Positions 8,725 to 26,330 are shown, numbered from the stretch's first letter. The stretch is 64,000 nucleotides of DNA from Vulcanimicrobiota bacterium (GCA_050250895.1 JBFWNU010000002.1:567659-631658); one strand, 5' to 3'. Notes: generated from the letters alone by a model not told the origin. Translations and numbers: made by a program.

Positions 8725-8729
8725 CAACC

Positions 8730-9712: not shown

Positions 9713-9756
9713 GGCTTCATGCTGCCACGGCCGCTAGCCGGCCGCGATGATCAAGA

Positions 9757-11133: not shown

Positions 11134-11176
11134 CGTCTTGTCTTCGTTATTCGTCGCCCGAATTCCGTCGAGCAGG

Positions 11177-12091: not shown

Positions 12092-12155
12092 GATTTTCTC
12101 CTGCCGGTCACTCGCTGATTGTAGATTAGCATCCGGGTCTGAAAGAAAGCTGAAC

Positions 12156-12527
12156 GGGGAGCGCTCGCCGCGCTCCCGGGGAAAGGAGCGCTCGCTTCGC
12201 TCGCGGGAAAAGGAGCGGCCTTCGGCCGGGAAAAGGAGCGAAGCTCGCTGAGCTCGCTTCGGGAAAGGAGCTCTCGCTGCGCTCGAGGGAGAAGGAGCGC
12301 TTGCTTCGCTCGCGGGAAAAGGAGCGGCCCTGCGGGCCGGGATAAGGGGCGAAGCTCGCTGAGCTCGCTTCGGGAAAGGAATCTCAGCCGCAGGCTGCTC
12401 CCCGTCGGCCGGAGGCCGAAACGGCTCCTTTCCCGCCGACGCAGTCGGCGCTCCCTGTCGACGCGCAGCGTCGAAATCTCAGCCGCAGGCTGCTCCCCGT
12501 CGGCCGGAGGCCGAAACGGCTCCCTGT
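12156..12527. repeat. Modular mini-hairpin array, copy 1
   Basis: Left half has GGAGC-[hairpin]-GGGA(A/G/T)AA units. Right half has reverse-complement linkers (GCTCCTTTCCC, GCTCCCTGTC) with hairpins such as AGCC-GCA-GGCT, GCCGAC-GCA-GTCGGC and GACGC-GCA-GCGTC. Confidence 0.9.
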
Positions 12528-13355
12528 CTAGGGAGCGTTGGTTTCGACGAACTCCAGCAACTCTTGCAGGGGAACGGCTCGCGGGGGGTAGAGGACGACC
12601 CGGTCTACGCCCATCGCGGCATAGCGTTCCAGGTCGCCCTCAGCCAGTTCGCGCGGGGTGACGGTGATTTCCAGTTTACCCAGTTCAGGGGGACGCTGGT
12701 AGCGGTCGGCGGCTTCTTTTAGGCCCTCGAGATGTTTGACCAGCTTTTCGGGAGTCATGGCAAAGCCGTACCAACTGCGGGCCATCTGCACGCTGCGACG
12801 GTAAGTGGCCCGATGATAGCCGCCCATCACTAGCGGCAGCGGGCGTTGGTCGGGTCGAGGACTGGCGCTCACCCCCGAGAAGCTGACGAAGTCAGATTCG
12901 AAGCTGGCCGGTGCCTGGGTCCAGATGGCCTGCATGGCACCCAGATAGTCGTCGGTGCGGCGGGCTCGTTCGGCCAGGGTAACCCCCAAAGCCTTGAACT
13001 CCGGTTCGAGGTAGCCGACCCCGATGCCCACCAGCAGACGACCCTTGGAGAGCACGTCGAGGCTGGCCAACTGTTTGGCCAAGACCAGAGGCTGGCGCTG
13101 GGGCAGGATGATCACGCCGGTGCCCAGGAGCAGCCGCTCGGTGACGGCGGCTGCGAAGGTGAGGGCCACTACTGGCTCCAGCAACCGTTCCTCGGGCTTG
13201 AGGGGGGCAGGGGCTTGCCAGGGATCGGGCAAGACGATGTGGTCGCCGGCCCAGAGCGACTCATAGCCAAGCTCTTCGGCCCGCCGGGCGACCGCTCGAA
13301 TACCGTCGGGATAGCTACAGGCGTCGTGATTGAGAGAGAACAGTCCGAACTTCAT
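12528..13355 (-). CDS. LLM-class (luciferase-like, probably F420-dependent) oxidoreductase
   Basis: MKFGL..AEELGYESLWAGDH..LAKQLASLDVLSKGR. The ORF-track extension to 13439 runs into the repeat array. Confidence 0.9.
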   Translation of the reverse strand: MKFGLFSLNHDACSYPDGIRAVARRAEELGYESLWAGDHIVLPDPWQAPAPLKPEERLLEPVVALTFAAAVTERLLLGTGVIILPQRQPLVLAKQLASLDVLSKGRLLVGIGVGYLEPEFKALGVTLAERARRTDDYLGAMQAIWTQAPASFESDFVSFSGVSASPRPDQRPLPLVMGGYHRATYRRSVQMARSWYGFAMTPEKLVKHLEGLKEAADRYQRPPELGKLEITVTPRELAEGDLERYAAMGVDRVVLYPPRAVPLQELLEFVETNAP

Positions 13356-13356
13356 A

Positions 13357-13730
13357 GGCCGGCCTTCGGCCGCGTTAAGGAGCGGCCCTGCGGGCGAGGA
13401 GCGCTCGCTTCGCTCACGGGCAGCGCTCGCTTCGCTCACGGGAGAAGGAGCTCTCGCTGCGCTTGAGGGAAAAGGAGCGGCCCTGCGGGCCGGGATAAGG
13501 GGCGAAGCTCGCTGAGCTCGCTTCGAGAGATGGAGAGCGGCCGTTCTTTCCCGCCGACGCAGTCGGCGCTCCCTGTCGACGCGCAGCGTCGAAATCTCAG
13601 CCGCAGGCTGCTCCCTGTCGGCCGCAGGCCGAAACGGCTCCTTCTCCCGGCGGCGGCACGCCGCCGCTCCCTGTCGACGCGCAGCGTCGAAATCTCAGCC
13701 GCAGGCTGCTCCCCGTCGGCCGCAGGCCGA
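13357..13730. repeat. Modular mini-hairpin array, copy 2
   Basis: Same modules as copy 1 (GCTCGCTTCGCTC, GGCCCTGCGGGCC, CGAAGCTCGCTGAGCTCGCTTCG, GTCGACGCGCAGCGTCGAAATCTCAGCCGCAGGCTGCTCCC) in different number and order. Confidence 0.9.
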
Positions 13731-13757
13731 GCAGGGGTGGGACCCGAAGGCGACGGC

Positions 13758-14759
13758 ATGCGATTTGGAGCTTTTACCCCCCAGGGTTGGCGTCTCGACC
13801 TGGTCGACGTCGAGCCGGGGTTTCCTCAGTACGTTCGGATGCGCGAGGTCGCCCTCGAGGCCGAGCGCCTCGGTTATGACAGCGTCTGGCTGTATGATCA
13901 CTTTCATACGGTGCCCGAAGCCTTGCCCGAGGCCACCTTCGAGGTATGGACGGCCACGGCCGCCCTGGCTGAAGCCACTTCGACCATCCGGCTGGGTCAG
14001 ATGTGTGGCTGCAACATTTATCGCCCTCCGGCCCTGCTGGCCAAGATCACGGCCAATATCGACGTCATCTCGAACGGCCGGCTGGACCTGGGCCTGGGGG
14101 CCGGGTGGTATCAGCACGAGACCGTCGCTTACGGCTATCCGTTCGAGAAGCCGGCGGTCCGCATCGGGCAGCTCGATGAGGCCGCTCAGATCCTCAAAGG
14201 CATGTGGACTCAGGACCATTTTGCCTTCGAGGGCAAGTACTACACGGTCGGCAAAGGCCAGGTCAAGGATTACCGCGGCCAACCCGCCGAGTTGAAGGGG
14301 GCCATCAACCATCCCAAACCGGTGCAAAATCCTCATCCTCCCATGTGGCTGGCTGGTGGGGGAGAGCAGTTGACCTTGCGCACGGTGGCCCGCTACGCCG
14401 ACTACTCGAACTATAGCGGCAGCATCGGGGACGTGCAGCACAAAAATCAGGTACTCGACCGCCACTGCGAGCAGCAACAGCGCGACCCCGCCGCCATCAC
14501 GCGCACCATGAACATCAATGTCATGCTGGCTTCAGAGCACGAGATCACGAGTCTGCTCGAGGCCAGTGGTCGCGGTCCCAGGGATATCGCCGCCATGAAG
14601 AAGATGCTGTATCCCACCGAGCCTCAGGCCCTTATCGACTGTTTGGCCGAGTATCGTGACCTGGCTCGCATCGACTACATCATCGTCTATTTTCCCGACG
14701 CAGGTCGCGGGCCTTCCCTGGAGCGATTCGCTAAAGAGGTGGCTCCGGCTCTGCGATAG
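13758..14759 (+). CDS. LLM-class (probably F420-dependent) oxidoreductase
   Basis: MRFGAFTPQGW..WLYDHF..DVISNGRL.LGLGAGW..PKPVQ.PHPP..GGGE. Confidence 0.9.
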   Translation: MRFGAFTPQGWRLDLVDVEPGFPQYVRMREVALEAERLGYDSVWLYDHFHTVPEALPEATFEVWTATAALAEATSTIRLGQMCGCNIYRPPALLAKITANIDVISNGRLDLGLGAGWYQHETVAYGYPFEKPAVRIGQLDEAAQILKGMWTQDHFAFEGKYYTVGKGQVKDYRGQPAELKGAINHPKPVQNPHPPMWLAGGGEQLTLRTVARYADYSNYSGSIGDVQHKNQVLDRHCEQQQRDPAAITRTMNINVMLASEHEITSLLEASGRGPRDIAAMKKMLYPTEPQALIDCLAEYRDLARIDYIIVYFPDAGRGPSLERFAKEVAPALR

Positions 14760-15570
14760 GCCGCCTGGTGTTGGTGCTGTGCAGCTGTTTTAGGACGTCT
14801 TGCAGGCGGCTGGTCACCCGAGCACTGATCGAGCCGCGCGAGGGAGCGCGCTGCTCGGGCCCGCGGGTAGCCTCTTGATAGGCGTCGGCCAGGCTGGCCA
14901 GCACAGCCATGCCTAGAAAGCGACCGCGGGCCAGAAAATACCGCACCTGCCTCTCGCTGGCCTCGCGACTGAGGCGCCGCAGAGTGTAGGTGTGCAAGCC
15001 CAGCACCTGGCTGGCGCTGTAGTTCCGCTGAGCAAGCTGGCCAGCCAGCTGGTTTGAGGCCACCGTATCCGAGATGTGCTTGGTCGAGAGGTAGTCTTCA
15101 TAGAGTTTGGCCACATCGGGATCGGGCTCACTCTGCTGGGTGTCGTCGACCAGGGTGCTCAGTTGGCCCAGTTCGACATTTAGATCCAGAAACACCGAGT
15201 CGGCTTTGCGAGCCAGGGCATAAGTGAGCGCACGACCCAGGCTTTCGGGGGAGAGTTTTGTCTTCTCGAGAAAATCCTGGGCGCCGGCATGGATGCAGGC
15301 CATGCCCAATTCTTCGTCGCCGGTGGCCGTGAGCACGATGATCGGGGTGGCAAAGGCATGGGCGTGGACGCGGGCGACGGTCTCGAGGCCGCTGCTGTCG
15401 GGGAGACCCAGATCGAGCATGATGACGTCAAAATCGGTCTTGCCCAGAGCTGACAGGGCCGCCTCGAGGGTCTCGACGTGTTGAACCTGGGCCTGCGAGT
15501 CCCCTAGTTGCAGATAACATTCGACGATAACGGCTTGTTCGGCGGCGTCTTCCACCAGGAGCGCGTGCAT
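14731..15570 (-). CDS. Response regulator (REC plus helical C-terminal domain)
   Basis: LLVED, MLDLGLPDSSG, IVLT, GAQDFLEK. Confidence 0.85.
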   Translation of the reverse strand: MHALLVEDAAEQAVIVECYLQLGDSQAQVQHVETLEAALSALGKTDFDVIMLDLGLPDSSGLETVARVHAHAFATPIIVLTATGDEELGMACIHAGAQDFLEKTKLSPESLGRALTYALARKADSVFLDLNVELGQLSTLVDDTQQSEPDPDVAKLYEDYLSTKHISDTVASNQLAGQLAQRNYSASQVLGLHTYTLRRLSREASERQVRYFLARGRFLGMAVLASLADAYQEATRGPEQRAPSRGSISARVTSRLQDVLKQLHSTNTRRPIAEPEPPL

Positions 15571-15606: not shown

Positions 15607-16119
15607 CTAGCGCGGGACCCTAAGACGAGCCGCTTGCGCGACTTCGGTCAACTGGTGCCAACCATTAATGGGAGTGGCCTCGGTATTGGGGTGTGTACTG
15701 TAATAGATGGTCTCGCCCTGAGAAAGCAGGTTGAAGGCGCCCTCGGGCTTGCAGTTTTGCAGCATTTCGGGATCGCCAGCTTTGAGATAGCCCAGTTCGT
15801 CGAGGGTGCGTAATTCGCCCCGCATGGCGTCTTGCTTCCACTCGGGAAGCGGTGCCTGGCCGGGGGTATAGTGGAACAGTTCTGCCATTTTTCCTTCTGC
15901 GGGCATCGCACCCAGGGCGGTTCGCTCGGTTTGGGCCAGCCAGGGCTGGCCGCTGGGCCTGGCCACCACCGGCGGCGGGGCGCTGTTGAGCACGGCGCTC
16001 TCGGTAGGCACCGACTCTGCGGCGGGTAGGGTGGGCGCCGCCGAAGCAGGGGCCGACTCGGCCTTCGCGACGGGTTTGAAGGCCGAGATCGTCTGGGTTA
16101 TGAGCGAGCGAATCTGCAT
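15607..16119 (-). CDS. Hypothetical protein translationally coupled to the annexin-repeat gene
   Basis: TGATG overlap at 16119; Ala/Pro-rich N-terminus and a globular-looking C-terminus. Confidence 0.7.
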   Translation of the reverse strand: MQIRSLITQTISAFKPVAKAESAPASAAPTLPAAESVPTESAVLNSAPPPVVARPSGQPWLAQTERTALGAMPAEGKMAELFHYTPGQAPLPEWKQDAMRGELRTLDELGYLKAGDPEMLQNCKPEGAFNLLSQGETIYYSTHPNTEATPINGWHQLTEVAQAARLRVPR

Positions 16120-19100
16120 CAGGCGATAAACTTCGTGCCGAAGTCAGGCACCCCGTAGGGCTTCATGAATTCGTCTAGTTCTTTGACCATGGCTTGCATT
16201 TCCCCTGCCGATGGGTTTCCGCTCCATAAGGTCTTGCGGATGTCGAGCATCTTGGCCCGGAAGGCATCCATGGCTTCCATCTCTTGACCCTTCGGAAAAC
16301 GGACCTCGGGATAGGCTCGCTGGAAACGATCCAATCCGACATCCTTGATTTCGCCGATGTGAGCCATGTTATTTTCGATGTTCTCTATCCGAGCCAGCAT
16401 CAGGTCGGTCGGTCGGGCCTCGTGCCGATAAGAGTAAAGCCGATCATAGAACACGTCCTTGGCGATGCGGGAGCGGCCTTCTTTGTCGAGGACCTGCCGG
16501 ACGGGAGCGTTCTTGGTGGTCTGGCCCACATCGTCGGCGCCCCACGGGTTACGGATGTAGACAAAGTCGTCGTCGACCCGCTCGATGTTGACGGCGTGCA
16601 GGCCGCCGTCGGGGTCGCCCTTGAACCAGTCCAGGGTGGCATGGATAGGCTCTCCCCGTTCTTCGGCCTGGCGAACGAGTTGCTCGAAATCGGAGCGGTG
16701 CTTAGCCCCGTTCGAGTAGCCGTGGTCGACGATTTTTCGGCCTCCCACATCTTCGAGGATCTGGCGAGCGTGCTTGTCGGACAGACCACCGTAGTCGAGG
16801 CTGCCGTCGTCCTTGAGGTGGCCACCCACGCCACCCTTGGAGCCGGTGACGTTGTTGTCGTAGCGGCGGCTGACGTGGTCCATGGCGGTCGACTGATAGA
16901 TGCGGTCGGCGCTGCGCCGGGTGCTGTTGTCGGCGGCCACGCCCGATTCGTTGCGGTAGAAGCGCCTGCCGGTCTTGAGGGTGACCTCACCCGATTCTTC
17001 ACCCAGCCCGGTCATCACCCGCACATAGTCGGCCGGGTCAGACTTGGCGTGCACGTACTGGCAGCTGCTGCCCGAGCACGTGCCGCGATTGCCCTGACGA
17101 ATCGTGCCCGGCGTGGTCACCGTTTCGAGCACTTCGTCAAAGTACTGGCCGCGGTTGAGTGAGGCGATCAGGGGGGCGTTGTCGAGTTCGACCAGATTGT
17201 CGAGCAGCGTCTGCCCCCGATGGTCGAGCTGGTTCAGCTTGCCCTCGCGAGCCAGACGGGCCAGGTTGCCTTCGACCCGGTTCGGCTTGGCGGTGCCGAA
17301 GATGCCGTCGAAGAATCCGGCCTCGGGCTTGTGCTTGTTGGCCAGTTCCAGCACCTTGAGCTGCTGGTCGGGCGCCATTTCGCGGAACTTGTCGATGTTG
17401 CGAAAGCGGCCCAACATGGGCTGGTCGGCAAAGCCGGCCACCTGGTCGGCCACCGTTCGCACCGGGGGTAGGGGAGGCGGGACGGGAACGTCCTTGAGCA
17501 CCGGCGGTGGAGCCCCGCCGCCGTCGAGCATTCCTTTGAGCTTGCCCAGAGCTGCCTGGTCGAGTTCGCGCGACTTCTGCCACAAGGCTCGGGCCTGGCC
17601 GGTCAGGCCGCTGCCGTCACCGGTCTTGAAGGCCCCCTTGAGCTTGTCGAGAGCCTGGCCGTCGAGTTCACGGGCTTTGCCGAGCCAACCGTTGACGGTG
17701 TCGCCCATCTGGCCCAGACGACCCCCCTCGCCGCCTCCACCCAGCATGCCTTTCAGCTTGTCGAGAGCGGCCGCGTCCATCTCGCGCGATTTCTGCCACA
17801 GGGCTTTGGCCTGGCCGGTCAGGTTGCTACCGTCGCCGGTGCGAAAAGCTCCCTTGAGCTTGTCCAAGGCCTGGCCGTCGAGGGCTTTGGCCTTGTCAAC
17901 CCAGCCGCGCACGGTGTCGCCCATCTGGCCCAGACGACCTCCCTCGCCGCCGCCACCCAGCATTCCCTTGAGCTTGTCGAGCGCAGCCCCGTCCATCTCG
18001 CGTGACTTCTGCCACAGGGCCCTGGCCTGGCCGGTCAGGCCACTGCCGTCGCCACTCTTGAAGGCGCCTTTGAGCTGGTCTAAAGCGCGCCGGTCCAGGG
18101 CCGTCGCCTTGTCGAACCAGCCTTTGACGGTGTCGCCCATTTGGCCCAGTCGACCCCCCTCGCCGCCTCCACCCATCAGGCCTTTGAGCTTGTCCAGAGC
18201 GGCTCCGTCAAGTTCGCGCGACTTCTGCCACAGGGCCTTGGCCTGACCGGTCAGACCACTGCCGTCGCCGGTGCGAAAGGCTCCTTTGAGTTTGTCGAGA
18301 GCGGCTCCGTCCAATTCGCGGGCCCTGGCATACCAGTTCTTGGCGGTCTCGCCCAATTGGCCCATGCGACCCTCGCCGCCCCCGCCCATCAAGCCCTTGA
18401 CTTTGTCGAAGGCCGCGTGATCGAGGTCGCGCGACTTTTGCCACAAGCCCTTGAGCTTGTCCAGAGCCGCGTGGTCGAGTTCGCGCGACTTCTGCCACAG
18501 AGCCTTGGCGTGTCCGGTCAAGCCGGTGCCATCGCCCGAATTTAGGGCTCGGCGCAAGGCCTGGCGGCTACCCGCGTCGAGTTCGCGAATCTGGCCCCAG
18601 ACCACCCTGGCTTTTTCGCCAGCCCGGCTGGCCAGATCGCCGCCCATCTCCATGGCCCTGCGTCCGCCGGCTGCCATCTTATCCCAACCCTGGCGGGTGT
18701 TGCGTACCAGGGCCGGCGCTCCGCCGATGGCGGCAGCCATCCCGCCGCCGGCCACGGCGCCAAGACTGGCCCCCATGCCGGTGGCCATACCGACCCGTTG
18801 CAGGCCGGCGCCAAATCCGTTGTCCCAGGTCCCATCGCGCAAAGCCTCGGCCCCGCCGGCCGACATGGCTCCGCCGATCATACCGTCGACCGCTCCCTCG
18901 GTGGCCAGCATGGCCACCCGGCTGCCGGCTAGAGCCGACTCGCTGGCCCGCAATCCGGCCACGGCCGCTTTGCCCGCGCCCATGCCGGCCACGGTAGCCA
19001 GGCCATCCACGGCGCCGATGGCGGCGTCGGTGCCCATGTCGCCTACGCCGTAAGAGCCGCCTTTGACGGCCGCCGAGGCGACCACTCGCGTGCCGGCACC

Positions 19101-21137
19101 AGCGCCGGCGGCCAGCGCGGCCGCCACCAGGGGAGTGGCCGTGCCGGCGGTGCCTACCACCACGGCTACCGAGGCGGCTGTGGCGGCCACCGTGCCAATG
19201 GCTTCGCCAGCGCTATCCTCGGCCTTGCGATAGGTTTCGACATCGGCATCCGAGTAGCCGAGCAGCTGGTTGAGTCGCTGCTTTTCGAGCTGGGCGTCTT
19301 CGCTGCGGCCCTCGCGCAGGGCCTGCTGATAACGCTCGTACTGCTCGTTGGCCCGGTCGGTGTTGGCATCGAGCAGCTTACCCTTGTCGGTGAAGGTGTC
19401 CATGATGGCCCGACTGGCCAGGTTGGAAAGCCCCTTGCGCTCATAGTCACGCCGCTCGTTGGCCTGCTCGAGCGCTTCTTCCACCGACTCGGCCTTGCCC
19501 TTGAGGGCCATGGTTGCGTCGAACTCGTCGCGGCCCGACAGTTCGCCTTTGAGGTCTTTGTCTAAATCGCGACCGGTCTCGGCCTGGTAATCTTGGCGCA
19601 GAGCTGCGATCTCGTCTTTAGTCTTGCCTTCAAGGACCTTCTTGATGGCCTCCTCATCGGTGCCCCAGCCGTCCATGGCGTATTTGAGCTTGGCCGCGTC
19701 GCTGACGTCGCCCTCACTCAGCAAACGGTTGGCCTTCTCGAGGTCGTTGCCGCCCATTTCGTCTTTGAAAGCGTCCTTGAGGTCAACCTTGTATTTGTCC
19801 TTATAGGCCGCCAGGATGGCGTCGCGCTCTTCTTTTGACTTGCCTTCGAGGGTCTGGAAGATCTCCTTTTCGTTGGTTCCCCAGCCGTCCATGGCATCGT
19901 GCAGCCGGGCGGCGTCCGCCTCGGCGGTCTTGCCGTCGAGCAGGCCTTCGGCCCGGGCGCGCTCGTCCTGGTTGAGTCGCTCTCCCATGCGCGAGCGCAG
20001 GGAATGACCCGTCAACTTCTGGTACTCGTCCTCGATGGCCGCCCGTTCTTCCTTGCTCTTGCCTTCGAGGGTCTTGTAGACGGCCTCTTCGTCGTCGCCG
20101 AAGATTCCCGACATGGCGTCCTGCAGTTTGGCCGCATCGGCTTTGGCGTCGTCGCCTTCGAGCAAGGAGAGAGCTTGACTCTGCTCGTTCTTGTTGAACC
20201 GTTCCTTGATGCGTTTGTCGAGGTCTTTACCGGTGAGCTTCTTATACTCTTCTTTGATTTCGGCACGTTGCTCGGCGGTCTTGCCTTTGAGGGTCTCGTA
20301 GACGGCCTCTTCGTCGTCGGTCAACCCGCTCATGGCGTCGCGGATCTTCATGGCGTCGGCCTTGGTGTCGTCGCCCTTCATGAGCGACTCGGCCCGTTGA
20401 AAGTCCTTGGTGCCGAGCTCTTCCTTGAGGTCTTTCATCAGGTCGCGGCCGTAGTGGTCGCGATAGTTCTCTTTGAGGGCCTTCATCTCTTCGGGCGACT
20501 TGCCCTTGAGGGCCTTGAAAACGGCGTCTTCGTCGGTACCCCAGCCGGTCAGGCCGCCTTTCATCGCCTCGTAGAGGTCGGTGGCGTCCCTGGTCGGGTT
20601 GTAGTTGGCCGTCTGCGTCTTGGGGTGGTCCTTGGGGGAAACGGTCTGCGGCCGCGGGGCCGGCGGTCCCTGGCGCTGTTCCTGGGGTTGGCGTTGCTCT
20701 TGCGGTTGGGGACGGGTGGGGCGTTCTTGAACCTGAGGACGTTGCCACTGCTGGGGCGGCACCCAGGGGCCAAAGAACTCTTCGTCGGGACTCTGCGGAT
20801 AAAATCCGCCGGGCATGCCGGGTTGGCCCTGCGGTTGCTGGCCTCGGGGCGGCTGGAAGAAGTAAGGAAGATCGTTGAAGGGTTGATAGAACCCGGTCTG
20901 GCCGTGGCAGGGGCATTGCCATCCCCCCTGGGCCATGCCGCTCTGCATGAAGTTCATCAGCATCTGCGAGAGCATCATGGCGTTGAAGTCGAAACCGAAA
21001 CAGGGCCCCATGGGAGGCGCGAACATGGGCGGACCCAGCAGCATCGAGGCTCCCTGATTGATTCCGCCATTCCAAGAACAGCCGCCCGCCGGACCGGCGT
21101 AGAAATTGAAATTAAGGCCGCCAGTGACCTGTTGCAT
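16119..21137 (-). CDS. Large annexin-repeat protein with hydrophobic segment, 72-aa repeats and calpain/papain-like Cys protease domain
   Basis: Five repeats of type DA..L..AM.G(W)GTDE.....L.GK...E....Y....G.DL...L..E; QGNRGTC, LHAV and IRNPWG motifs; AGGAGG RBS. Confidence 0.85.
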   Translation of the reverse strand: MQQVTGGLNFNFYAGPAGGCSWNGGINQGASMLLGPPMFAPPMGPCFGFDFNAMMLSQMLMNFMQSGMAQGGWQCPCHGQTGFYQPFNDLPYFFQPPRGQQPQGQPGMPGGFYPQSPDEEFFGPWVPPQQWQRPQVQERPTRPQPQEQRQPQEQRQGPPAPRPQTVSPKDHPKTQTANYNPTRDATDLYEAMKGGLTGWGTDEDAVFKALKGKSPEEMKALKENYRDHYGRDLMKDLKEELGTKDFQRAESLMKGDDTKADAMKIRDAMSGLTDDEEAVYETLKGKTAEQRAEIKEEYKKLTGKDLDKRIKERFNKNEQSQALSLLEGDDAKADAAKLQDAMSGIFGDDEEAVYKTLEGKSKEERAAIEDEYQKLTGHSLRSRMGERLNQDERARAEGLLDGKTAEADAARLHDAMDGWGTNEKEIFQTLEGKSKEERDAILAAYKDKYKVDLKDAFKDEMGGNDLEKANRLLSEGDVSDAAKLKYAMDGWGTDEEAIKKVLEGKTKDEIAALRQDYQAETGRDLDKDLKGELSGRDEFDATMALKGKAESVEEALEQANERRDYERKGLSNLASRAIMDTFTDKGKLLDANTDRANEQYERYQQALREGRSEDAQLEKQRLNQLLGYSDADVETYRKAEDSAGEAIGTVAATAASVAVVVGTAGTATPLVAAALAAGAGAGTRVVASAAVKGGSYGVGDMGTDAAIGAVDGLATVAGMGAGKAAVAGLRASESALAGSRVAMLATEGAVDGMIGGAMSAGGAEALRDGTWDNGFGAGLQRVGMATGMGASLGAVAGGGMAAAIGGAPALVRNTRQGWDKMAAGGRRAMEMGGDLASRAGEKARVVWGQIRELDAGSRQALRRALNSGDGTGLTGHAKALWQKSRELDHAALDKLKGLWQKSRDLDHAAFDKVKGLMGGGGEGRMGQLGETAKNWYARARELDGAALDKLKGAFRTGDGSGLTGQAKALWQKSRELDGAALDKLKGLMGGGGEGGRLGQMGDTVKGWFDKATALDRRALDQLKGAFKSGDGSGLTGQARALWQKSREMDGAALDKLKGMLGGGGEGGRLGQMGDTVRGWVDKAKALDGQALDKLKGAFRTGDGSNLTGQAKALWQKSREMDAAALDKLKGMLGGGGEGGRLGQMGDTVNGWLGKARELDGQALDKLKGAFKTGDGSGLTGQARALWQKSRELDQAALGKLKGMLDGGGAPPPVLKDVPVPPPLPPVRTVADQVAGFADQPMLGRFRNIDKFREMAPDQQLKVLELANKHKPEAGFFDGIFGTAKPNRVEGNLARLAREGKLNQLDHRGQTLLDNLVELDNAPLIASLNRGQYFDEVLETVTTPGTIRQGNRGTCSGSSCQYVHAKSDPADYVRVMTGLGEESGEVTLKTGRRFYRNESGVAADNSTRRSADRIYQSTAMDHVSRRYDNNVTGSKGGVGGHLKDDGSLDYGGLSDKHARQILEDVGGRKIVDHGYSNGAKHRSDFEQLVRQAEERGEPIHATLDWFKGDPDGGLHAVNIERVDDDFVYIRNPWGADDVGQTTKNAPVRQVLDKEGRSRIAKDVFYDRLYSYRHEARPTDLMLARIENIENNMAHIGEIKDVGLDRFQRAYPEVRFPKGQEMEAMDAFRAKMLDIRKTLWSGNPSAGEMQAMVKELDEFMKPYGVPDFGTKFIA
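17520..18620 (-). repeat. Intragenic 216-bp (72-aa) tandem repeat, about 4.5 copies
   Basis: The LWQK-encoding motif recurs at 17574, 17790, 18006 and 18222 (period 216), then at 18435 and 18489. Confidence 0.9.
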
Positions 21138-21232: not shown

Positions 21233-21892
21233 TCAAGTCTGGCGCCGGCGCCTGAGCACGCCCCCCAGAATGCGGGCGAAGTCCTGCCGAGCGTCGCCTT
21301 CGGTGATACCCTGGTTGGTTCGGTGGATCCGGCGTCGCACCAGCACCTGGTCCACCATCGTCACCGTAGCTCCCGCCTCTTGAGCCCGGGCATACCAATC
21401 GATAAATTCGCCCACCTTCCAACCGGTGGCGAAGGGTCCCACCCGCTCGAATAGCCTGCGCCGCGCCAGCAGAGTAGAAGGCAGTTTGCCGGGCATCGGC
21501 TCGGTGCGCACTAAATAGGGATGGTTCGGATCGAGTTCTGGGCTCAAGAATTCCTCTACCAGGGTGAAGACCAGTTCGACCTCGGGCCCCAGACTGGACA
21601 GCTGCAGCTCGAGTTTGTCCGGCAGCCAGAGGTCGTCGGCGTCGAGAAAGGCTACCAGAGGATGGTGACTCAGTTCGAGGCCCCGATTCCTGGCCGCGGC
21701 CGCTCCCGATTGGGACTGGCAGTGATAGTGCACGGGGAATTGGGCCGCCACCTGGGCGGTGCCATCGGTCGAACCGTCGTCGATGACCCAGATGTCGTCA
21801 GGCCGATGGCTCTGCGCCAGCAGGCTGCTCAGGGCTTCGGCCAGATATCGCTCTCCGTTGTGCACGGGTAGGATGACGTCGATCTTACTCAA
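21233..21892 (-). CDS. GT2-family glycosyltransferase
   Basis: VILPVHNG, IDDGSTD, AARNRG, FLDADD. Confidence 0.92.
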   Translation of the reverse strand: MSKIDVILPVHNGERYLAEALSSLLAQSHRPDDIWVIDDGSTDGTAQVAAQFPVHYHCQSQSGAAAARNRGLELSHHPLVAFLDADDLWLPDKLELQLSSLGPEVELVFTLVEEFLSPELDPNHPYLVRTEPMPGKLPSTLLARRRLFERVGPFATGWKVGEFIDWYARAQEAGATVTMVDQVLVRRRIHRTNQGITEGDARQDFARILGGVLRRRRQT

Positions 21893-22871
21893 GGAGTTCT
21901 CTCAGCTTCTCGGCGCCGCCCGCTCGCGTGGCAAGCTCCAGGCGGTAGCAAGGCAACCGGCGCGAGAGTCGAGCCAGAGCGGCAAAGGTCGCCTGGCTGT
22001 CTCCAGGCAGTTGGAAGACCGTGCTCGGGGCCAGAGCCAGCAGAGCTTGGGCGGGCGTTACCGGGGTGAGAACGTCCTTTTGGCCCAATTGCGGCATCAC
22101 GATGGCTCGCAGACCGAGTCCGTCCGCCAATCGGTGGCCCTGGGAGCGGGCCAGGAAGGTCACGGCTTTGGGCTCCTGGTCGGAATTCATCGGCTCAAAC
22201 CACGGAAAGTGAGGCAAATCGTGACGATGCAGCTTGGCGGAGCAATACAGACCGTGCACCAGTAGTTGCTCGATGTCGACCAGGCAATAATCCTCGCCCA
22301 CGAACTCGAGGCCCGCCTCGAGGCTGGCCAGGGCCAGATTGGATTTGCCCGAGCCGCCTCGACCGGGCAGCAAGACGGCCACCCCGGCCCGGCCCACCGC
22401 CGCCGCATGCAGCATGCACTTCGAGCGGCTGCCTAGCAGCCGACTAAAGATCACTCGAAAGGGCGCGGCCAGCTCGTAATAAGGAAGGCGTTCGGCGGCC
22501 GGAGCCCAGTAAAAACCGTGACCGGTTTCCAGGTCTATCATCCGCAGCAATTGTTCTTCCCCCTCGAACACGGTCAAGAACCGGGCATCCGACATGTCCT
22601 CGATCCGGGCGCGCGGCCCAAAGGACTGGGGCCTCCAAGGCGGCGAGGGCAGAGGCGCCTGGGCGCCGTGCCAGGCGAAGATAGTGAAGTCAGCCTGTGC
22701 GCCCCCGCTAGCATGGTGGGCCAGGGCCGGCAGGAGCTTTGCGGTGAGGGGCTCGGCCAGAGCCAGTTCGACGGTCAGGTTGGCGATGACCAGGCGATGA
22801 CGGGTCAGGGCCAGCTCGGCCAGCACCTCACGACAATCTTCGGCGAACCGTTCGGCCAGACTGACTACCAA
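21885..22871 (-). CDS. HPr kinase-like P-loop kinase
   Basis: LHAAAVG..VLLPGRGGSGKS..FVGEDY; start codon uncertain. Confidence 0.8.
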   Translation of the reverse strand: MVVSLAERFAEDCREVLAELALTRHRLVIANLTVELALAEPLTAKLLPALAHHASGGAQADFTIFAWHGAQAPLPSPPWRPQSFGPRARIEDMSDARFLTVFEGEEQLLRMIDLETGHGFYWAPAAERLPYYELAAPFRVIFSRLLGSRSKCMLHAAAVGRAGVAVLLPGRGGSGKSNLALASLEAGLEFVGEDYCLVDIEQLLVHGLYCSAKLHRHDLPHFPWFEPMNSDQEPKAVTFLARSQGHRLADGLGLRAIVMPQLGQKDVLTPVTPAQALLALAPSTVFQLPGDSQATFAALARLSRRLPCYRLELATRAGGAEKLRELLE

Positions 22872-23767
22872 CGGCTGACCACCCGTCGCCAGAGATACCC
22901 GGGCAAGCCCACCAGGATATCAGCCCAACGACTCGGACAGCCGCGCAGGTACTCGCGCACGAACCCCAGCCTGAATCGCACGGCCCATTCCCCCAGTTGC
23001 TCGAAGAGATCCGGGTCGAGGGAGAGCGGCGGGTTACAGGACCAGGGGGCCAGCCTCTGCAGACCGGTCCGCACCTGGCTGGCCACCCGGCGCCGCCGCG
23101 CTTCGCAGGCCAGCAGCTCCCAGTCAATCGGGTGGCGGCGGTTCAGTTGCACCGCATCCACTCCCCACCAGGGCTCTTCCTGGCGCACCAGACTGAGCAG
23201 CAGGGCATCGCTGGGGCATGGCCGCCACAGCGGCCGGCCCAGCCAATGAAAGCTCTCGGCTCGCTCGAGCAAGCCCCGGTCGGCCTCGCTCCACCGGCAT
23301 TCAGTGAGTGCGTGCCAGCGCAGCACGAGCGGCGTTTGGCCCCGTTGATAAAGACAGCTCGAGCCTTCCTCGGGGCGGGCCACCGGCGGGCCGCCGCTCC
23401 AACCTCGTTGCTCGAGCAAGCGAGCGCAATGCCAGCGTTGCTCGGGTGTTATCAACACCGAGAGATAGAGACAGGGCCGCCAGGACTCGTCGGAATAGGC
23501 CTGGGTCATCAGGGCCGCGTCTCCGGTCGCCAGCCAGCGCACCGCGGCGAACAGCTCGGCGACCTCTTCGAGGTCTTGCTTGACCAGTTGGGTTCGGGTG
23601 AAATAGTAGCGGCGCAAGCCCGTTAGGCGCGGATGCTCGTGTTGTTCGCGAATGGCCAGCATGGGCAAAAGGGAATGCAGGCGTGGGTCGAGTTCGTCGA
23701 GCCAATCGAGAGGACCGGGTTGCGCCGGCCCGAGCAGTCTATGCCAGAGGGTTTCGAGCTCACTCAC
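22865..23767 (-). CDS. NTP_transf_5-like nucleotidyltransferase, degenerate
   Basis: Paralogue of 26327-27349 (ECRWSEADR vs ECVWPEADR), but KGAAL becomes TGDAAL and DIDL becomes YLSV. Confidence 0.7.
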   Translation of the reverse strand: MSELETLWHRLLGPAQPGPLDWLDELDPRLHSLLPMLAIREQHEHPRLTGLRRYYFTRTQLVKQDLEEVAELFAAVRWLATGDAALMTQAYSDESWRPCLYLSVLITPEQRWHCARLLEQRGWSGGPPVARPEEGSSCLYQRGQTPLVLRWHALTECRWSEADRGLLERAESFHWLGRPLWRPCPSDALLLSLVRQEEPWWGVDAVQLNRRHPIDWELLACEARRRRVASQVRTGLQRLAPWSCNPPLSLDPDLFEQLGEWAVRFRLGFVREYLRGCPSRWADILVGLPGYLWRRVVSRW

Positions 23768-24494
23768 CGACGTGACGCTCTTCCAAGAACCGTCGCACCT
23801 CGGCGTCCTGGGCGACCAGGCTCAACCTGGGTAAGGATTCGGCTTTGCCCCGACGGCGGCGACGGTCGAGCGAGTGCTTCAAGGCGCGAGCCAGATGCTG
23901 CCCGCTGAGATAAGAGTCGGCCGTCATGTTGTCGGGATGACGTCGATAGTGCAGGGCGATCCGGCTAGAGATCTCGAAGCGCCGCCCTTGCTCGCGGATT
24001 CGCATGAACCAGTCGACATCTTCGGACATGGGCAGCTCCTCGTCGATGAGCCCCACTGCCTCGAAGAGGCTTCGCCGGCACACAGCCGCCCCGAATTGAA
24101 AACCGACCACCGGCTCGCTAAACTGCTTGAGCCCTTCCCATCGAATGCGGCCCAGCACCAACTCGAGGGTAGGGTCGGCCAGCAGCCGGCCCACCTGCCA
24201 GTCGAGCTTGCCAGGGGGCCACAGGTCGTCATCGTCGATAAAAGCGACCAACTCGCCCGACGAGGCTTTAATGCCACGATTGCGGGCGGCCGAGGGCCCC
24301 TGATTGGCCTGGCTCAAGTAGACCACCTGGGGACAAGCCTCGGCCACCTGCCGGGTGTCATCGGTCGAACCGTCGTCGACCACCACGATCTCCAGGGGAT
24401 GATAGTTTTGAGCCAGCACGGATTCCAGCGCCTGGGCAAGAGTCGCCTCGCCGTTAAAGACAGGCACAATCACGCTTAAGCTCGGTCCGGTCAC
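23760..24494 (-). CDS. GT2-family glycosyltransferase
   Basis: SVIVPVFNG, VDDGSTD, FIDDDD, SEDVDW. Confidence 0.92.
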   Translation of the reverse strand: MTGPSLSVIVPVFNGEATLAQALESVLAQNYHPLEIVVVDDGSTDDTRQVAEACPQVVYLSQANQGPSAARNRGIKASSGELVAFIDDDDLWPPGKLDWQVGRLLADPTLELVLGRIRWEGLKQFSEPVVGFQFGAAVCRRSLFEAVGLIDEELPMSEDVDWFMRIREQGRRFEISSRIALHYRRHPDNMTADSYLSGQHLARALKHSLDRRRRRGKAESLPRLSLVAQDAEVRRFLEERHVGE

Positions 24495-24548
24495 GGCGCG
24501 TTTATTCGTTGGGAGGCATCCCGGAACCCTGGTAGAAGGTCCCCTTTT

Positions 24549-26330
24549 TTGGGCGCAGAACCTTTGACCGTGCGGCGTTACCTGGCCACTCTGCTAGAGC
24601 CCGGTTCGGCTCGAGGGTTGTTCGGGCTGTTGGTGCTGACCGTCTTCACCTCGGTGCTCGAACTGGTCAGTCTGGGGGCCGTTTTGCCCTTTATGGGTCT
24701 GGTAGTCCAGCCCGACCTGCTGTCCAAGTTTCCGACCCTCGAGGACTTCCTGGCTCGCCACCAGTTGAGTCACCACGAGCTGTTGGTGGCGGTCGGTTCG
24801 GGCATGGTGGTAGCCGTCATCTTGACCAACATCATGGCGGTGGTGATGGCCAACCGGGCCCAGCGGTTCACCGCCGACCTGCATCTGAGGCTGGTCACTC
24901 GTTTGTTGCAGGGGTTCCTGAGCCAACCCTACAGCTGGTTTCTCAACCGCAATACAGCCGAATTGGCTCGCCACGTCGAGGCTGTCGAAGCGGTGACCCG
25001 GGGGGTCTTCGAACCGGCCCTGCGGCTGGCCACCCGGGTCGGCAGCATGGTGCTGGTGATGTTGATGCTGCTACTTTACGATCCGTTGCTGTTGCTTTTG
25101 ATGGGGTTGGTGCTGGGCGGTCTCTACGCCGGCGCCTATGTTTATTGCCGTCACCGGGTGCAGGCCCTGGGTCAGCAGACCTGGGCCGCCCAACGCGAAG
25201 TCAAGCTGGCCACTCACCGGGCCCTCGAAAGCGCGCGAGAAGCGCGGCTTGGGGGCTTCGAAGAGTTCTTCGTAGGGCGCGTGTTGGACCCGGTGGAGCG
25301 AGTTCAAACCATGGGTGTGGTGCGCTCGACCCTGGAAGCCGTGGCTACCTATCTGACTCGCACGATGGTGATTCTTGGTTTCTTGCTGACCACGCTCTAT
25401 CTGGTCGTCCGCTATCCCGCGCCCGAGCACGTCATTCCTTTGTTGGGGCTCTACGCCCTGGCCGGTTACCGTCTGATGCCGACCCTGCAGTTGGCCTTTC
25501 AGAGCTTCACGCTAATTCGTTCGAACCTGACGGTGACGCGGGTGCTGGCTGAGGACCTGGAACAATCGCCGCCCCAGGTCGGGGGTCCGCAGTTGGCCGG
25601 ACTGGCTTTGACCGAGGGGGTCGCCCTCGAAGAGGTGGTCTTTGGCTACGGAGAGGAACCTTGGCTGGATGTCTCGTTGCGCATCCAGGCCGGCACCCGG
25701 GTCGGTCTGGTGGGGCCTACCGGCGCCGGAAAATCCACCCTGGTGGCTCTGCTGTGCGGTCTGCTCACGCCCACCCGGGGTCGACTCCTCCACGACGGAG
25801 AGCCTCTCGAAGGGCAGCGGCTGCGGCGCTATCAAAAGAGCATCGGGTTGGTTCCTCAACATATCTATCTGCTCGACGACACCCTGGCTCGCAATATCGC
25901 CTTTGGGGTGGCCGACCACGAGATCGACGAGCAGCGGTTGTGGGAAGTGCTGGCTCTCACTCAACTCGAGGAATTCGTGCGCACCCTACCCGATGGGTTG
26001 CACACCTCCCTGGGTGAGCGAGGGGTGCGCTTTTCGGGGGGGCAGCGCCAACGCGTGGGGATCGCCCGGGCCCTGTACCCAAAACCGCAGATTCTGATTT
26101 TCGACGAGGCTACGAGCAGTCTCGACCACCGCACCGAAGGGCAGGTCACTTCGGCCATGGCGCGGGCCACCCGCGACTGCACGGCGGTGGTGGTGGCCCA
26201 TCGTCTGGCCACGGTCAAGGATTGCGACCTCATTCATGTCATCGAGAACGGTCGCCTGACCGCCTCGGGAACCTATGCCGAGTTGGCCGATCGCTCGCAA
26301 GCTTTTCGAGAGATGGCCGGGTTGGCATGA
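24549..26330 (+). CDS. ABC exporter, fused TMD-NBD (PglK/HepA-like)
   Basis: N-terminal TM helices; GPTGAGKST, FSGGQRQR, LIFDEATS, VAHR; no C39 peptidase domain. Confidence 0.92.
   Translation: MGAEPLTVRRYLATLLEPGSARGLFGLLVLTVFTSVLELVSLGAVLPFMGLVVQPDLLSKFPTLEDFLARHQLSHHELLVAVGSGMVVAVILTNIMAVVMANRAQRFTADLHLRLVTRLLQGFLSQPYSWFLNRNTAELARHVEAVEAVTRGVFEPALRLATRVGSMVLVMLMLLLYDPLLLLLMGLVLGGLYAGAYVYCRHRVQALGQQTWAAQREVKLATHRALESAREARLGGFEEFFVGRVLDPVERVQTMGVVRSTLEAVATYLTRTMVILGFLLTTLYLVVRYPAPEHVIPLLGLYALAGYRLMPTLQLAFQSFTLIRSNLTVTRVLAEDLEQSPPQVGGPQLAGLALTEGVALEEVVFGYGEEPWLDVSLRIQAGTRVGLVGPTGAGKSTLVALLCGLLTPTRGRLLHDGEPLEGQRLRRYQKSIGLVPQHIYLLDDTLARNIAFGVADHEIDEQRLWEVLALTQLEEFVRTLPDGLHTSLGERGVRFSGGQRQRVGIARALYPKPQILIFDEATSSLDHRTEGQVTSAMARATRDCTAVVVAHRLATVKDCDLIHVIENGRLTASGTYAELADRSQAFREMAGLA

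Follow-up and report, generated by a model that had tools for sequence, protein, structure and literature searches.

Why a bacterium should join annexin repeats, a long Gly/Ala-rich hydrophobic stretch and a peptidase of calpain-like fold in one polypeptide is the question raised by a locus of a Vulcanimicrobiota bacterium (GCA_050250895.1, JBFWNU010000002.1:567659-631658), which was analysed as a window of 64,000 nucleotides, this being the whole stretch of DNA considered. Annexin modules in bacterial toxins have already been described (PMC3482391, 2012; PMC3894181, 2014; PMC8213781, 2021); the available portions of these papers propose annexins as accessory modules aiding the breach of target membranes and mention a Corallococcus protein with five annexin domains, and annexin-bearing toxins were proposed as eCIS/PVC cargo in 2012 (Zhang et al., PMC3482391). 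The present locus is a variation on these known annexin-bearing, swappable toxins, and annexin toxin modules as such are not new. The cassette as a unit, the peptidase family and the partner protein treated below are not described in the available portions of PMC3482391, PMC3894181 and PMC8213781. We read the locus as a toxin-inhibitor pair of the polymorphic-toxin type with delivery by an annexin cassette and a peptidase warhead, a reading to which we give a probability of roughly 0.6. Its features, in window coordinates, are as follows.

16119..21137, minus strand: whole open reading frame, 1672 aa (P0001); single ORF, start shared with a close homologue
20838..21137, minus strand: N-terminal module, aa 1-100, candidate trafficking domain; F/M/G/Q-rich, with a CPCH motif
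20595..20837, minus strand: Pro/Gln-rich linker, aa 101-181; from composition
19494..20594, minus strand: five annexin repeats, aa 182-548; from five Pfam stretches and an AF2 model
19212..19493, minus strand: helical stalk, aa 549-642; AF2 helices with pLDDT 82-97, conserved in homologues
18702..19211, minus strand: Gly/Ala-rich hydrophobic region, aa 643-812; from hydropathy, composition and family consensus
17511..18542, minus strand: tandem-repeat spacer, aa 866-1209; from TRF and phmmer
17454..17510, minus strand: Pro-rich linker, aa 1210-1228; from sequence
16389..17438, minus strand: predicted clan CA calpain-like cysteine peptidase, aa 1234-1583; from family conservation, AF2 and structure matches
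17094-17096, minus strand: Gln1348 of the peptidase domain
17076-17078, minus strand: Cys1354 of the peptidase domain
16596-16598, minus strand: His1514 of the peptidase domain
16548-16550, minus strand: Asn1530 of the peptidase domain
16122..16388, minus strand: C-terminal helical tail, aa 1584-1672; four helices in the AF2 model, pLDDT 68-84
15607..16119, minus strand: 170-aa gene (P0125), predicted inhibitor/immunity protein; from overlap, conserved pairing and a complex model

The annexin cassette and its variable C-termini

The single minus-strand ORF of 1672 aa at 16119..21137 agrees with the first-pass annotation, a GGAGG Shine-Dalgarno sequence lies upstream of its ATG, and a close homologue (88% identity) starts with the identical MQQVTGG. 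The first 175 residues contain 30 Pro, 29 Gln and 23 Gly. Beyond them, Pfam PF00191 matched the protein in five stretches with an E value of 2.1e-52 and 175.5 bits against a curated cut-off of 25 bits, and this HMMER search placed the annexin repeats at nt 19494-20594, where they had been proposed from about 19500 to 20595. With a score so far over the threshold and with the conserved catalytic residues described below, the annexin and catalytic features of the protein exceed chance. The repeats are mutually 39-49% identical. Repeats 1, 4 and 5 carry GWGT (aa 198, 418 and 490; loops GWGTDE, GWGTNE and GWGTDE, respectively), and repeats 2 and 3, with degenerate loops, carry DDEE (aa 274 and 348), just as the first-pass annotation had read these motifs; the distal Glu that it had claimed for repeats 1, 4 and 5 was found in all five, about 41-42 residues past the loop. 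Putative type II Ca2+ sites, made up of a GxGT loop and an acidic residue about 38-42 positions downstream, are thereby present in repeats 1, 4 and 5. In a 44-row alignment, GxGT is conserved in all 42 rows with residues there for repeat 1 and in 44/44 for repeat 5, and the distal acidic residue in 42/44 and 44/44 rows, respectively; no relative examined has lost the sites of repeats 1 and 5, and most retain that of repeat 4.

The AF2 model of aa 176-860 contained 25 helices within aa 181-545 at pLDDT above 90, and a Foldseek search of the annexin model against the PDB returned only annexins among the best 25 of the 50 matches listed (E 1e-15 to 1e-10), the remainder being annexins or annexin A2 fusion constructs. 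The repeats are thus modelled as five-helix annexin units, as had been supposed. Superposition of the five-repeat model on the eukaryotic four-repeat core gave a global TM of ~0.3 and an rmsd of 13-14 Å, with strong local similarity. Ca2+-triggered action and a receptor-binding role, both suggested by the first-pass annotation, may be ascribed to this module.

Following the annexins, the stalk is predicted to be helical; its candidacy as a sixth annexin repeat was rejected with an hhalign probability of 0.1%. The long Gly/Ala hydrophobic stretch previously placed at about 18700-19200 was recovered by hydropathy and composition: the 168 residues of aa 643-810 include 48 Ala and 38 Gly, and Kyte-Doolittle peaks of at least 1.2 occur nowhere in the protein except with centres at 651-682 and 795-803. 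The region contains a conserved helical hairpin (about 645-690), after which come small-xxx-small stretches resembling a glycine zipper, and has the family consensus TAATxAAxAAxxAVVVxTAGxATPxVxAAxAAxAGA; the AF2 model assigns it low confidence, with pLDDT under 60. Tandem repeats between this stretch and the protease had also been noticed, and TRF resolved them as units of 216 nt (72 aa) in 4.3 copies with 77-80% matches at nt 17527-18453. Each 72-aa unit consists of two half-units of ~36 aa, phmmer giving six stretches; the closest full-length homologues have one half-unit only, and no further copies of the repeat were found elsewhere in the same genome.

A search for homologues sharing the annexin and hydrophobic parts, suggested by the first-pass annotation, found the stalk and hydrophobic region directly after the annexins in 105 of the 120 homologues listed, with differing C-termini. 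Of 98 C-terminal tails, 12 have the calpain-like peptidase, and the others include RelA_SpoT, Peptidase_M90, YwqJ-deaminase, AHH, PT-HINT, Gln_deamidase_2, PRTase-CE, FHA and DnaJ. Some of these C-terminal domains (DnaJ, FHA) are not classical toxins. Homologue P0020, which has the same N-terminal module, carries a RelA_SpoT C-terminus in place of the protease. The genome itself holds two paralogues of the cassette, one of which, with 4019 aa, also contains RHS repeats, a weak Ntox21 match and three FHA domains. Judged by sequence, the annexins, the stalk and the hydrophobic parts belong together in a constant cassette of polymorphic-toxin architecture, and the polymorphic-toxin layout first proposed for the protein is supported by this cassette, by the swapped C-termini and by the downstream partner gene.

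The C-terminal peptidase domain

The motifs QGNRGTC (aa 1348), LHAV (aa 1513) and RNPWG (aa 1529) lie at nt 16553-17096, in keeping with the first-pass reading of QGNRGTC, HAV and IRNPWG at about 16540-17100. They supply the residue order of clan CA, Q1348, C1354, H1514 and N1530, which is conserved across the family: all 82 members of an alignment have the Cys, the His and one Arg, and at Gln, Asn-Pro and Gly conservation is 90% or higher. A threshold of E <=1e-3 puts 818 representative clusters in the family, and one of E <=1e-10 leaves 363. Pfam gave no family match on the peptidase domain, Peptidase_C2 (PF00648) being absent at E up to 10, and Peptidase_C2 was reached by 0 of the 82 relatives at E <=0.01; Peptidase_C39_2 (PF13529) did not match the 1672-aa protein and was matched by six of the 82 relatives at E <=0.01 (best 3e-6), and DUF3335 by two. 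The domain founds a family that has no name.

The AF2 model of the domain (pLDDT 90.1, pTM 0.89) was compared by VIA-align with 48,161 chains. Calpain-9 ranked first (Z 11.8, rmsd 4.0, 210 residues aligned) and calpain-1 second (Z 11.7, rmsd 4.4, 222 aligned), followed by staphopain C, the C39 domain of ComA, SpeB and the papain-like toxin CdiA-CT at Z 9.8-10.9; staphopain C and ComA C39 both scored 10.9 and PCAT1 C39 10.2. The calpains have the longest alignments but stand within 1 Z unit of staphopain and C39, so that they are statistically tied. All 30 matches with Z >=8 are papain-like, and Foldseek returned calpain, staphopain, cathepsins and SpeB at probability 0.95-1.00. When the family profile was compared with PDB sequences, 10 of the 15 matches at E <=10 were calpains; these matches are weak and fall in the His/Asn region, the best (E 0.011) aligning the family His and RNPWG onto GHAYS and RNPWG of calpain-9. 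The C-terminal domain is accordingly modelled as a papain-like (clan CA) Cys/His/Asn peptidase. Of the calpain-like protease originally proposed, the papain-like fold stood, calpain cores being the top structural matches within the statistical tie, but membership in Pfam Peptidase_C2 did not. "Calpain-like" is therefore a description of the fold and not of family membership, because neither the query nor the 82 relatives match Peptidase_C2.

With the calpain core (MEROPS C2, PF00648) the domain shares the papain-like fold, probably in two subdomains, the order Gln, Cys, His, Asn and the RNPWG motif, with 210-222 of ~250 residues aligned by VIA-align at 16-17% identity. Unlike calpain, it has an extra helical N-subdomain and a C-terminal helical tail, the latter confined to the closest relatives, and neither penta-EF-hand nor C2-like domains were found in the protein, which has no Pfam EF-hand match. 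Staphopain (C47) and the C39/Tox-PLC39 domains belong likewise to clan CA, whereas the present domain is about twice their size. The Citrobacter rodentium CdiA-CT/CdiI pair (PDB 8ssm) also unites a clan CA C-terminus of a polymorphic toxin with a cognate immunity protein; the two toxins have only the minimal papain core in common (Z 9.8, 129 residues aligned by VIA-align), and delivery is by the T5SS CdiA filament there and would be by the annexin cassette here.

The downstream partner gene

The stop codon of the toxin gene and the start codon of the 170-aa gene overlap in TGATG. Homologues of the partner stand immediately downstream of the protease gene in three of nine related loci (E 6.5e-24, 4.3e-16 and 1.1e-12) and are missing in the other six; these three are the loci whose match enters the C-terminal tail region, extending to query residue 356-448, and two of them reach residues 423 and 448. 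A search of 5.8 billion proteins found only one close homologue of the partner. Complex prediction for partner and protease favoured binding with an ipSAE of 0.83, the best of three controls reaching 0.00; of 80 solved complexes 58 attained the mark, as did 2 of 110 mismatched pairs, and these counts apply only approximately here, the alignments being self-made. The runs agreed in at least 85% of contacts, with partner pLDDT of at least 73. A search for solved relatives of the partner came up empty (best E 0.036), and it is therefore unlikely that the prediction passed by reproducing a solved complex.

In the modelled interface, residues 138, 140-141 and 296-301 of the peptidase construct (P0002), including Cys140 (Cys1354) and His300 (His1514), face partner residues 165-170, with 299 and 301 pairing with partner residue 169, and the C-terminal helical tail of the toxin touches the partner as well. 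That both the Cys and the His segments lie in this interface lends indirect support to a convergence of the catalytic residues in space. On this model the partner would cover the catalytic Cys and His, and the 170-aa product is predicted to be the cognate immunity or inhibitor protein of a polymorphic toxin, for which a cognate downstream partner is the expectation. Staphostatin is a small staphopain inhibitor encoded directly downstream of its protease. The silencing proposed here would resemble that of staphopain by staphostatin: the present partner is likewise encoded directly downstream and predicted to sit in the active-site cleft. It has no detectable similarity to solved proteins.

The domain might instead be a processing peptidase and not a warhead, cleaving its own chain to release a part or maturing another secreted product in the manner of C39 domains, for which the neighbouring glycosyltransferase, nucleotidyltransferase and ABC-transporter genes offer a candidate product. 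The only Pfam families reached by the relatives are indeed C39-like (Peptidase_C39_2 and DUF3335, as counted above), the C39 domains of ComA and PCAT1 score Z 10.9 and 10.2 as structural matches, and the ABC transporter encoded upstream (24549-26330) lacks a built-in peptidase domain; moreover, Zhang et al. 2012 (PMC3482391), in its available portions, allows that papain-like domains may be releasing peptidases in polymorphic toxins. Against such a role stand the dedicated partner, which is conserved along with the protease and predicted to lie across its active site, the recurrence of the pair in 3/3 partner-bearing related loci, and the neighbours viewed there, a ShlB-type transporter (L016) and a small C-lobe homologue (L018), which do not form such a cluster. 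We consider a processing role quite improbable, and a silenced toxin remains the preferred reading.

Export, membrane topology and proposed mechanism

The N-terminal module has no Pfam or Atlas match, nor has any part of aa 1-180. A jackhmmer search with it reached 6 of 272 proteins compared, all of them close annexin homologues, and no second copy was found in the same genome. The absence of a Sec signal reported at first reading was confirmed, since the Kyte-Doolittle peaks of at least 1.2 lie solely within the hydrophobic region. No secretion genes were found flanking the locus, which is bordered by housekeeping genes and a glycosyltransferase/ABC cluster.

Considering that annexin domains are tied to PVC/eCIS toxins in the available portions of Zhang et al. 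2012 and Geller et al. 2021, and that an N-terminal eCIS_core (formerly DUF4157) occurs in 4 of the 30 homologues scanned, the protein might be cargo of an extracellular contractile injection system. In common with the annexin-bearing PVC/eCIS toxins as presented in those sources, it has annexins upstream of a variable C-terminal enzymatic domain. It differs from them in lacking a Pfam match to the eCIS_core (DUF4157) metallopeptidase, in its fixed five-repeat unit with a conserved stalk and Gly/Ala hydrophobic region, and in its nameless calpain-like peptidase warhead with a partner gene of its own. The genome, 99.6% complete, yielded no eCIS or T6SS markers: Phage_sheath_1, VipB and PAAR gave no match while their controls were detected, and eCIS_core and Pvc16_N gave none either, these two being weak negatives whose controls were found nowhere. 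An eCIS cargo is hardly probable at all on this evidence.

The protein could also be an effector that is never exported, the hairpin anchoring it in the inner membrane of the producer with annexins and protease alike on the cytoplasmic side; if Ca2+ flowed in or the membrane were damaged, the annexins would be drawn to the inner leaflet and the protease released from its inhibitor, in a membrane-damage or abortive-infection response comparable to the roles of annexin and calpain in eukaryotic membrane repair. Consistent with this, there is neither a signal peptide nor an identifiable secretion system, a two-helix hairpin would leave both flanks on one side of the membrane, and the C-termini of relatives include the regulatory FHA and DnaJ as well as RelA_SpoT, nuclease and deaminase domains that also serve abortive-infection systems. 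A cytosolic, membrane-anchored topology was predicted for one bacterial annexin in the available part of Kodavali et al. 2014 (PMC3894181). Contrarily, eCIS_core, LysM (in one of the homologues) or RHS repeats in relatives mark exported toxins, PADLOC matched neither the protein nor its protease domain nor the partner, and the conserved arrangement, in which a constant cassette precedes a variable C-terminus and a partner gene follows, is that of polymorphic toxins. An intrinsic defence role is in our view unlikely.

Returning to the polymorphic-toxin reading, the analysis shows which domains are present and how they fold, that the catalytic residues are conserved, that a constant cassette carries variable C-termini and that the gene pair recurs, and it predicts an interface. 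What we infer beyond this concerns Ca2+-dependent binding to lipid, passage through the membrane, secretion, toxicity and the type of cell attacked, and would run as follows. The lineage-specific N-terminal module would specify export, the annexin repeats would dock on anionic phospholipid through their Ca2+ sites, and the hydrophobic region would then insert into the membrane and help the C-terminal part across. The 72-aa repeats would act as an expandable spacer between delivery cassette and warhead, and the peptidase would finally cleave proteins of the target cell. In the producer, the 170-aa partner would bind the protease, the partner's C-terminal tail lying across the catalytic Cys and His, and so keep the enzyme silent.

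A bolder version, which we put forward tentatively and regard as rather doubtful, takes annexins, stalk and Gly/Ala hairpin for a self-contained, Ca2+-triggered translocation "B moiety" in need of no injection machine, which would dock on anionic lipid, insert, and carry any attached C-terminal enzyme over the target membrane. If this were true, it would account for the occurrence of the cassette behind RHS, eCIS_core, LysM or novel N-termini and for its presence in genomes without a contractile system.

Architecture and genomic setting of the 1672-residue protein

Positions 16119-21137 of the window, on the minus strand, form a single open reading frame of 1672 residues, whose ATG is preceded by GGAGG with an AT-rich stretch further upstream. 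The GC content of the locus (0.62–0.67) is inside the range of the window, and the gene is flanked by chromosomal housekeeping genes (MreB/C, PBP2, RodA, ClpP, Lon and two-component proteins). The window is located on contig C2 of a 99.6% complete assembly (9.5 Mb in 17 contigs) of an uncultured environmental bacterium. The best protein match to the whole protein was 88% identical and partial, and this match and most of the related loci derive from MAGs labelled Eremiobacterota, Xenobia or Vulcanimicrobiota. No NCBIfam family matched the whole protein, and PADLOC yielded no family for the protein, its protease domain, the adjoining 170-residue partner or a small open reading frame resembling one protease lobe. 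Every element listed in the first-pass annotation was found at its assigned position.

Layout of the protein (residues, strand of the gene, feature)
aa 1-100, minus strand, F/M/G/Q-rich module with CPCH motif
aa 101-181, minus strand, Pro/Gln-rich linker
aa 182-548, minus strand, five annexin repeats
aa 549-642, minus strand, helical stalk
aa 643-812, minus strand, Gly/Ala hydrophobic region
aa 866-1209, minus strand, tandem repeats
aa 1210-1228, minus strand, Pro-rich linker
aa 1234-1583, minus strand, peptidase domain
aa 1584-1672, minus strand, helical tail

The tandem repeats constitute a 216-nt (72-aa) array of 4.3 copies with 77–80% matches. Since the closest full-length homologues carry one half-unit only (~34 aa) and no other copy of the 72-aa unit was found in the same genome, the array is a recent, lineage-specific expansion; the repeat region had no relative in the PDB. 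The N-terminal module is common to only six close homologues, among which P0020 ends in RelA_SpoT, not in the protease, and it gave no usable match in the protein-language-model atlas. On visual inspection it looked similar to the start of P0134 and P0136, two short protease-only proteins, neither of which was recovered by jackhmmer, so this likeness is considered compositional only.

Directly upstream of the gene, positions 21233-27349 encode two family-2 glycosyltransferases, an HPr-kinase-like protein, two NTP_transf_5 nucleotidyltransferases and an ABC exporter lacking any peptidase domain, which together resemble a small cluster for the maturation and export of a product. The next gene after the partner (14731-15570, minus strand) encodes a response-regulator receiver domain with weak PADLOC candidate-defence matches (PDC-M60B, E 1.7e-6).

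The annexin cassette and its reuse

The Pfam Annexin model matched five stretches of the protein (E 2.1e-52), and an AlphaFold2 model of aa 176-860, based on an alignment of this segment with 43 homologues (44 rows), comprised 25 helices at pLDDT above 90, five per repeat, bearing out the five annexin repeats recognized in the first reading. The stalk added four further confident helices, and its interpretation as a sixth, degenerate annexin repeat was ruled out by an hhalign probability of 0.1%. Pairwise identity among the five repeats is 39–49%. The GWGT(D/N)E loop is present in repeats 1, 4 and 5, the loops of repeats 2 and 3 are degenerate (GLTDDEE and GIFGDDEE), and the Glu ~41–42 residues downstream of the loop is kept in all five. 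In the 44-row alignment, GxGT is invariant in repeat 1 (42/42 rows with residues there) and repeat 5 (44/44) and is less often kept in repeats 2 (27/42), 3 (38/44) and 4 (30/44). The top 25 rows of a Foldseek search against the PDB were all annexins (E 1e-15 to 1e-10, 21–27% identity), and the remainder of the 50 listed matches were annexins or annexin A2 fusion constructs. Superposition on annexins reached a TM of only about 0.3 with an rmsd of 13–14 Å, suggesting that the modelled five-repeat packing differs from the eukaryotic tetrad.

The hydrophobic region (aa 643-810, 168 residues) contains 48 Ala and 38 Gly. Strongly hydrophobic windows occur in the whole protein only at centres 651-682 and, more weakly, 795-803, the former matching a hairpin that is conserved across the family (consensus TAATxAAxAAxxAVVVxTAGxATPxVxAAxAAxAGA); the AlphaFold2 model of this region is unreliable (pLDDT under 60). 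Weak PDB matches between aa 770-851 and the T6SS amidase Tse1 (E 0.004–0.018) were taken as compositional because this segment is Gly/Ala-rich. Proteins under 919 aa with the stalk and hydrophobic region numbered 0 among 8000 candidates, a list that Gly/Ala-rich words may have saturated.

A whole-protein search scored 7996 candidates, of which 220 were homologues, and the comparison covered the best 120 of these. The stalk and hydrophobic region directly follow the annexins in 105 of these 120, indicating that all three parts belong to a single conserved cassette. The sequences diverge downstream of it: the 98 C-terminal tails with at least 80 aa fell into 20 single-linkage clusters, and 12 of the tails carry the protease described here. 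Homologues sharing the annexin and hydrophobic parts with different C-termini, which the first-pass annotation had suggested searching for, do therefore exist. Pfam scanning of 30 homologues identified C-terminal RelA_SpoT, Peptidase_M90, YwqJ-deaminase, AHH nuclease, PT-HINT, Gln_deamidase_2, PRTase-CE, FHA and DnaJ domains and N-terminal eCIS_core (4/30) and LysM (1/30) domains, five annexin stretches being the commonest count (14/30).

We consider a polymorphic-toxin-type locus the most economical explanation, with a probability of roughly 60%. The annexin and hydrophobic cassette would act as a membrane-docking and translocation module, the tandem repeats as a spacer and the calpain-like peptidase as the warhead, of which the 170-aa gene product may be an inhibitor or immunity protein.

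The same genome encodes two cassette paralogues of 4019 and 1294 aa. The larger (2234-14293, minus strand, of locus L009 on contig C1) starts with a Lys/Ala/Pro/Glu-rich repeat and combines RHS repeats with the cassette, followed by an HELKH motif noted only by eye, a weak match to Ntox21 and three FHA domains; an RHS protein with ~2000 aa beyond its repeats is unusual. A sample of 81 genomes from the phylum, this one included, had annexin in 15 genomes and the protease family in 20; nearly all of these matches fell in the large-genome families, and none in the small genomes of families f2 (16) and f14 (23). Of the eight other genomes in the family to which this genome belongs, four have single open frames of 1476–1604 aa with both domains.

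The peptidase domain and its putative inhibitor

The C-terminal domain matched no Pfam family, even at E up to 10, and the single protease sequence found no relative in the PDB (one match, E 0.83). An HMMER scan covering 1.84 billion representatives with a cut-off of E 1e-3 assembled a family of 818 clusters (363 at 1e-10 and 37 at 1e-30), most members of which are 350–700 aa long and carry the domain C-terminally. Across 82 members that were aligned, Cys1354, Arg1407 and His1514 never vary and Gln1348, Asn1530, Pro1531 and Gly1533 are at least 90% conserved, so that judging from the alignment the order Gln, Cys, His, Asn is that of papain. Six of these members matched Peptidase_C39_2 and two DUF3335. 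Calpains made up 10 of the 15 PDB sequences found with the family profile at E up to 10, all weak (best E 0.011), and the family His and RNPWG fall on the GHAYS and RNPWG of calpain-9. The AlphaFold2 protease model (pLDDT 90.1, pTM 0.89) gave Foldseek matches to CtaG, staphopain, calpain cores, cathepsins and SpeB (E 1e-4 to 1e-2), and it was also ranked with VIA-align against 48,161 chains.

VIA-align matches of the protease model (rows within one Z unit count as tied)
Calpain-9, Z 11.8, 210 aligned residues
Calpain-1, Z 11.7, 222 aligned residues
Staphopain C, Z 10.9, 147 aligned residues
ComA C39 domain, Z 10.9, 133 aligned residues
Alr0975, Z 10.6, 160 aligned residues
SpeB, Z 9.9, 161 aligned residues
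Papain-like CdiA-CT toxin, Z 9.8, 129 aligned residues

Considering these ties, the domain belongs securely to clan CA and is calpain-like in size and shape, but it does not pass the sequence test for family C2. The calpain-like protease of the first-pass annotation thus holds for clan and overall shape but not for family, as Peptidase_C2 was matched neither by the query at E up to 10 nor by any of the 82 relatives. In the protein-language-model atlas, the domain sits among unnamed 'hypothetical protein' clusters that are most frequent in Melainabacteria and Myxococcota, and the same genome also carries several stand-alone copies of the domain.

Partial forms were observed as well. A 135-aa ORF at 31577-31984 (plus strand) of the window is a stand-alone homologue of the C-terminal (His/Asn) lobe only, without the Cys lobe (hhalign probability 96.4%, E 1e-9; hmmsearch E 6e-8), is 37% identical (E 7e-24) to a 129-aa gene adjoining the toxin–partner pair in the related locus L018, and could be a decoy or accessory protein. 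On contig C9 (13416-16175, plus strand, within locus L013 of the same genome), a 920-aa frame carries ~2.5 tandem protease N-lobes (profile positions 64-227) without a complete C-lobe, and other genomes of the phylum contain similar multi-N-lobe frames.

The 170-aa partner ORF (15607-16119) starts inside the stop codon of the 1672-aa frame (TGATG). It had no Pfam, PADLOC or PDB relative and no paralogue in the same genome, and the large protein search yielded a single close homologue. Of nine related loci from species genomes, three carry a partner homologue directly downstream of the protease gene, namely L016 (E 6.5e-24), L018 (4.3e-16) and L017 (1.1e-12), and the other six do not. These three are the best matches and reach the C-terminal tail region (query residues 448, 356 and 423 for L016, L018 and L017), and the conserved portion of the partner is its C-terminal ~100 aa. 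A 391-aa gene adjoining the pair in L017 was compared with the 570-aa ORF 30145-31857 of the window, and the match (E 0.01) was unconvincing.

Complex prediction for protease and partner scored 0.83, with 0.00 for the best of three controls; the mark applied admits 58/80 solved complexes and 2/110 mismatched pairs, counts that are approximate here with custom alignments. Contact agreement between runs was at least 85% and partner pLDDT at least 73. The modelling supports, rather than shows, binding of the partner to the protease domain. The confident part of the predicted interface covers protease residues 1352, 1354-1355 and 1510-1515, including the catalytic Cys and His, as well as 1448-1457 and parts of the helical tail, and on the partner the last six residues and two surface patches. 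As modelled, this is the geometry of an active-site-blocking inhibitor.

Export, competing explanations and significance

No Sec-like signal was found in the 1672-aa protein. The genome had no match to Phage_sheath_1, VipB or PAAR, for all of which controls were positive, and none to eCIS_core or Pvc16_N, a weak result since these controls matched nowhere; that the protein is eCIS cargo seems very improbable. In L016, from a related MAG, a ShlB/FhaC-type outer-membrane transporter (2595-4124, plus strand; POTRA_2 and ShlB, E 7e-27) starts ~90 nt past the partner homologue, and the toxin ORF runs off the contig end, leaving its N-terminus uncovered. This arrangement hints at two-partner-like export in that relative. 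The two ShlB genes of the present genome lie on another contig, far from the toxin gene and its paralogues, and so do not tie the present protein to such a transporter.

The main competing explanation is a cell-intrinsic, membrane-anchored, Ca2+-responsive protease, with which both the hairpin topology and the failure to find an export route would agree. However, fusion of the cassette to eCIS_core, LysM and RHS in relatives weakens this explanation, which we regard as unlikely; a role as a processing peptidase is judged somewhat less likely again.

PVC-secreted toxins in which annexin domains invariably precede an enzymatic toxin domain were described previously, with the annexins proposed to aid in breaching target membranes, and several papain-like toxin domains, one of them C39-like, were listed in the same work (Zhang et al. 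2012, PMC3482391). A catalogue of bacterial annexins covers proteins with toxin, metallopeptidase and transmembrane parts and notes a Corallococcus protein with five annexin domains (Kodavali et al. 2014, PMC3894181), and Annexin was counted among the eCIS-associated, probably anti-eukaryotic domains (Geller et al. 2021, PMC8213781). The principle of annexin-bearing toxins is already in print. Searches of full texts, as distinct from supplements, which may list related architectures, yielded nothing on the annexin and calpain-like architecture, the cassette as a unit or the partner. Not found in print were the fixed five-repeat-plus-hairpin cassette, the Pfam-unmatched protease family with a predicted inhibitor and the apparent independence from contractile injection systems.

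Annexins are rare in bacteria, and to our knowledge none of them has an experimentally demonstrated function. In the present protein they constitute a fixed five-repeat unit joined to a hydrophobic segment and reused with many enzymatic C-termini in large-genome Eremiobacterota/Xenobia-like bacteria, Myxococcota and others, providing a concrete, testable model of bacterial annexin action as a lipid-docking and translocation module. Two Pfam-unmatched families are defined that can be tested at the bench, a calpain-like cysteine peptidase (818 representative clusters) and a small predicted active-site plug. If the cassette does translocate cargo without an injection machine, it would represent a new delivery principle.
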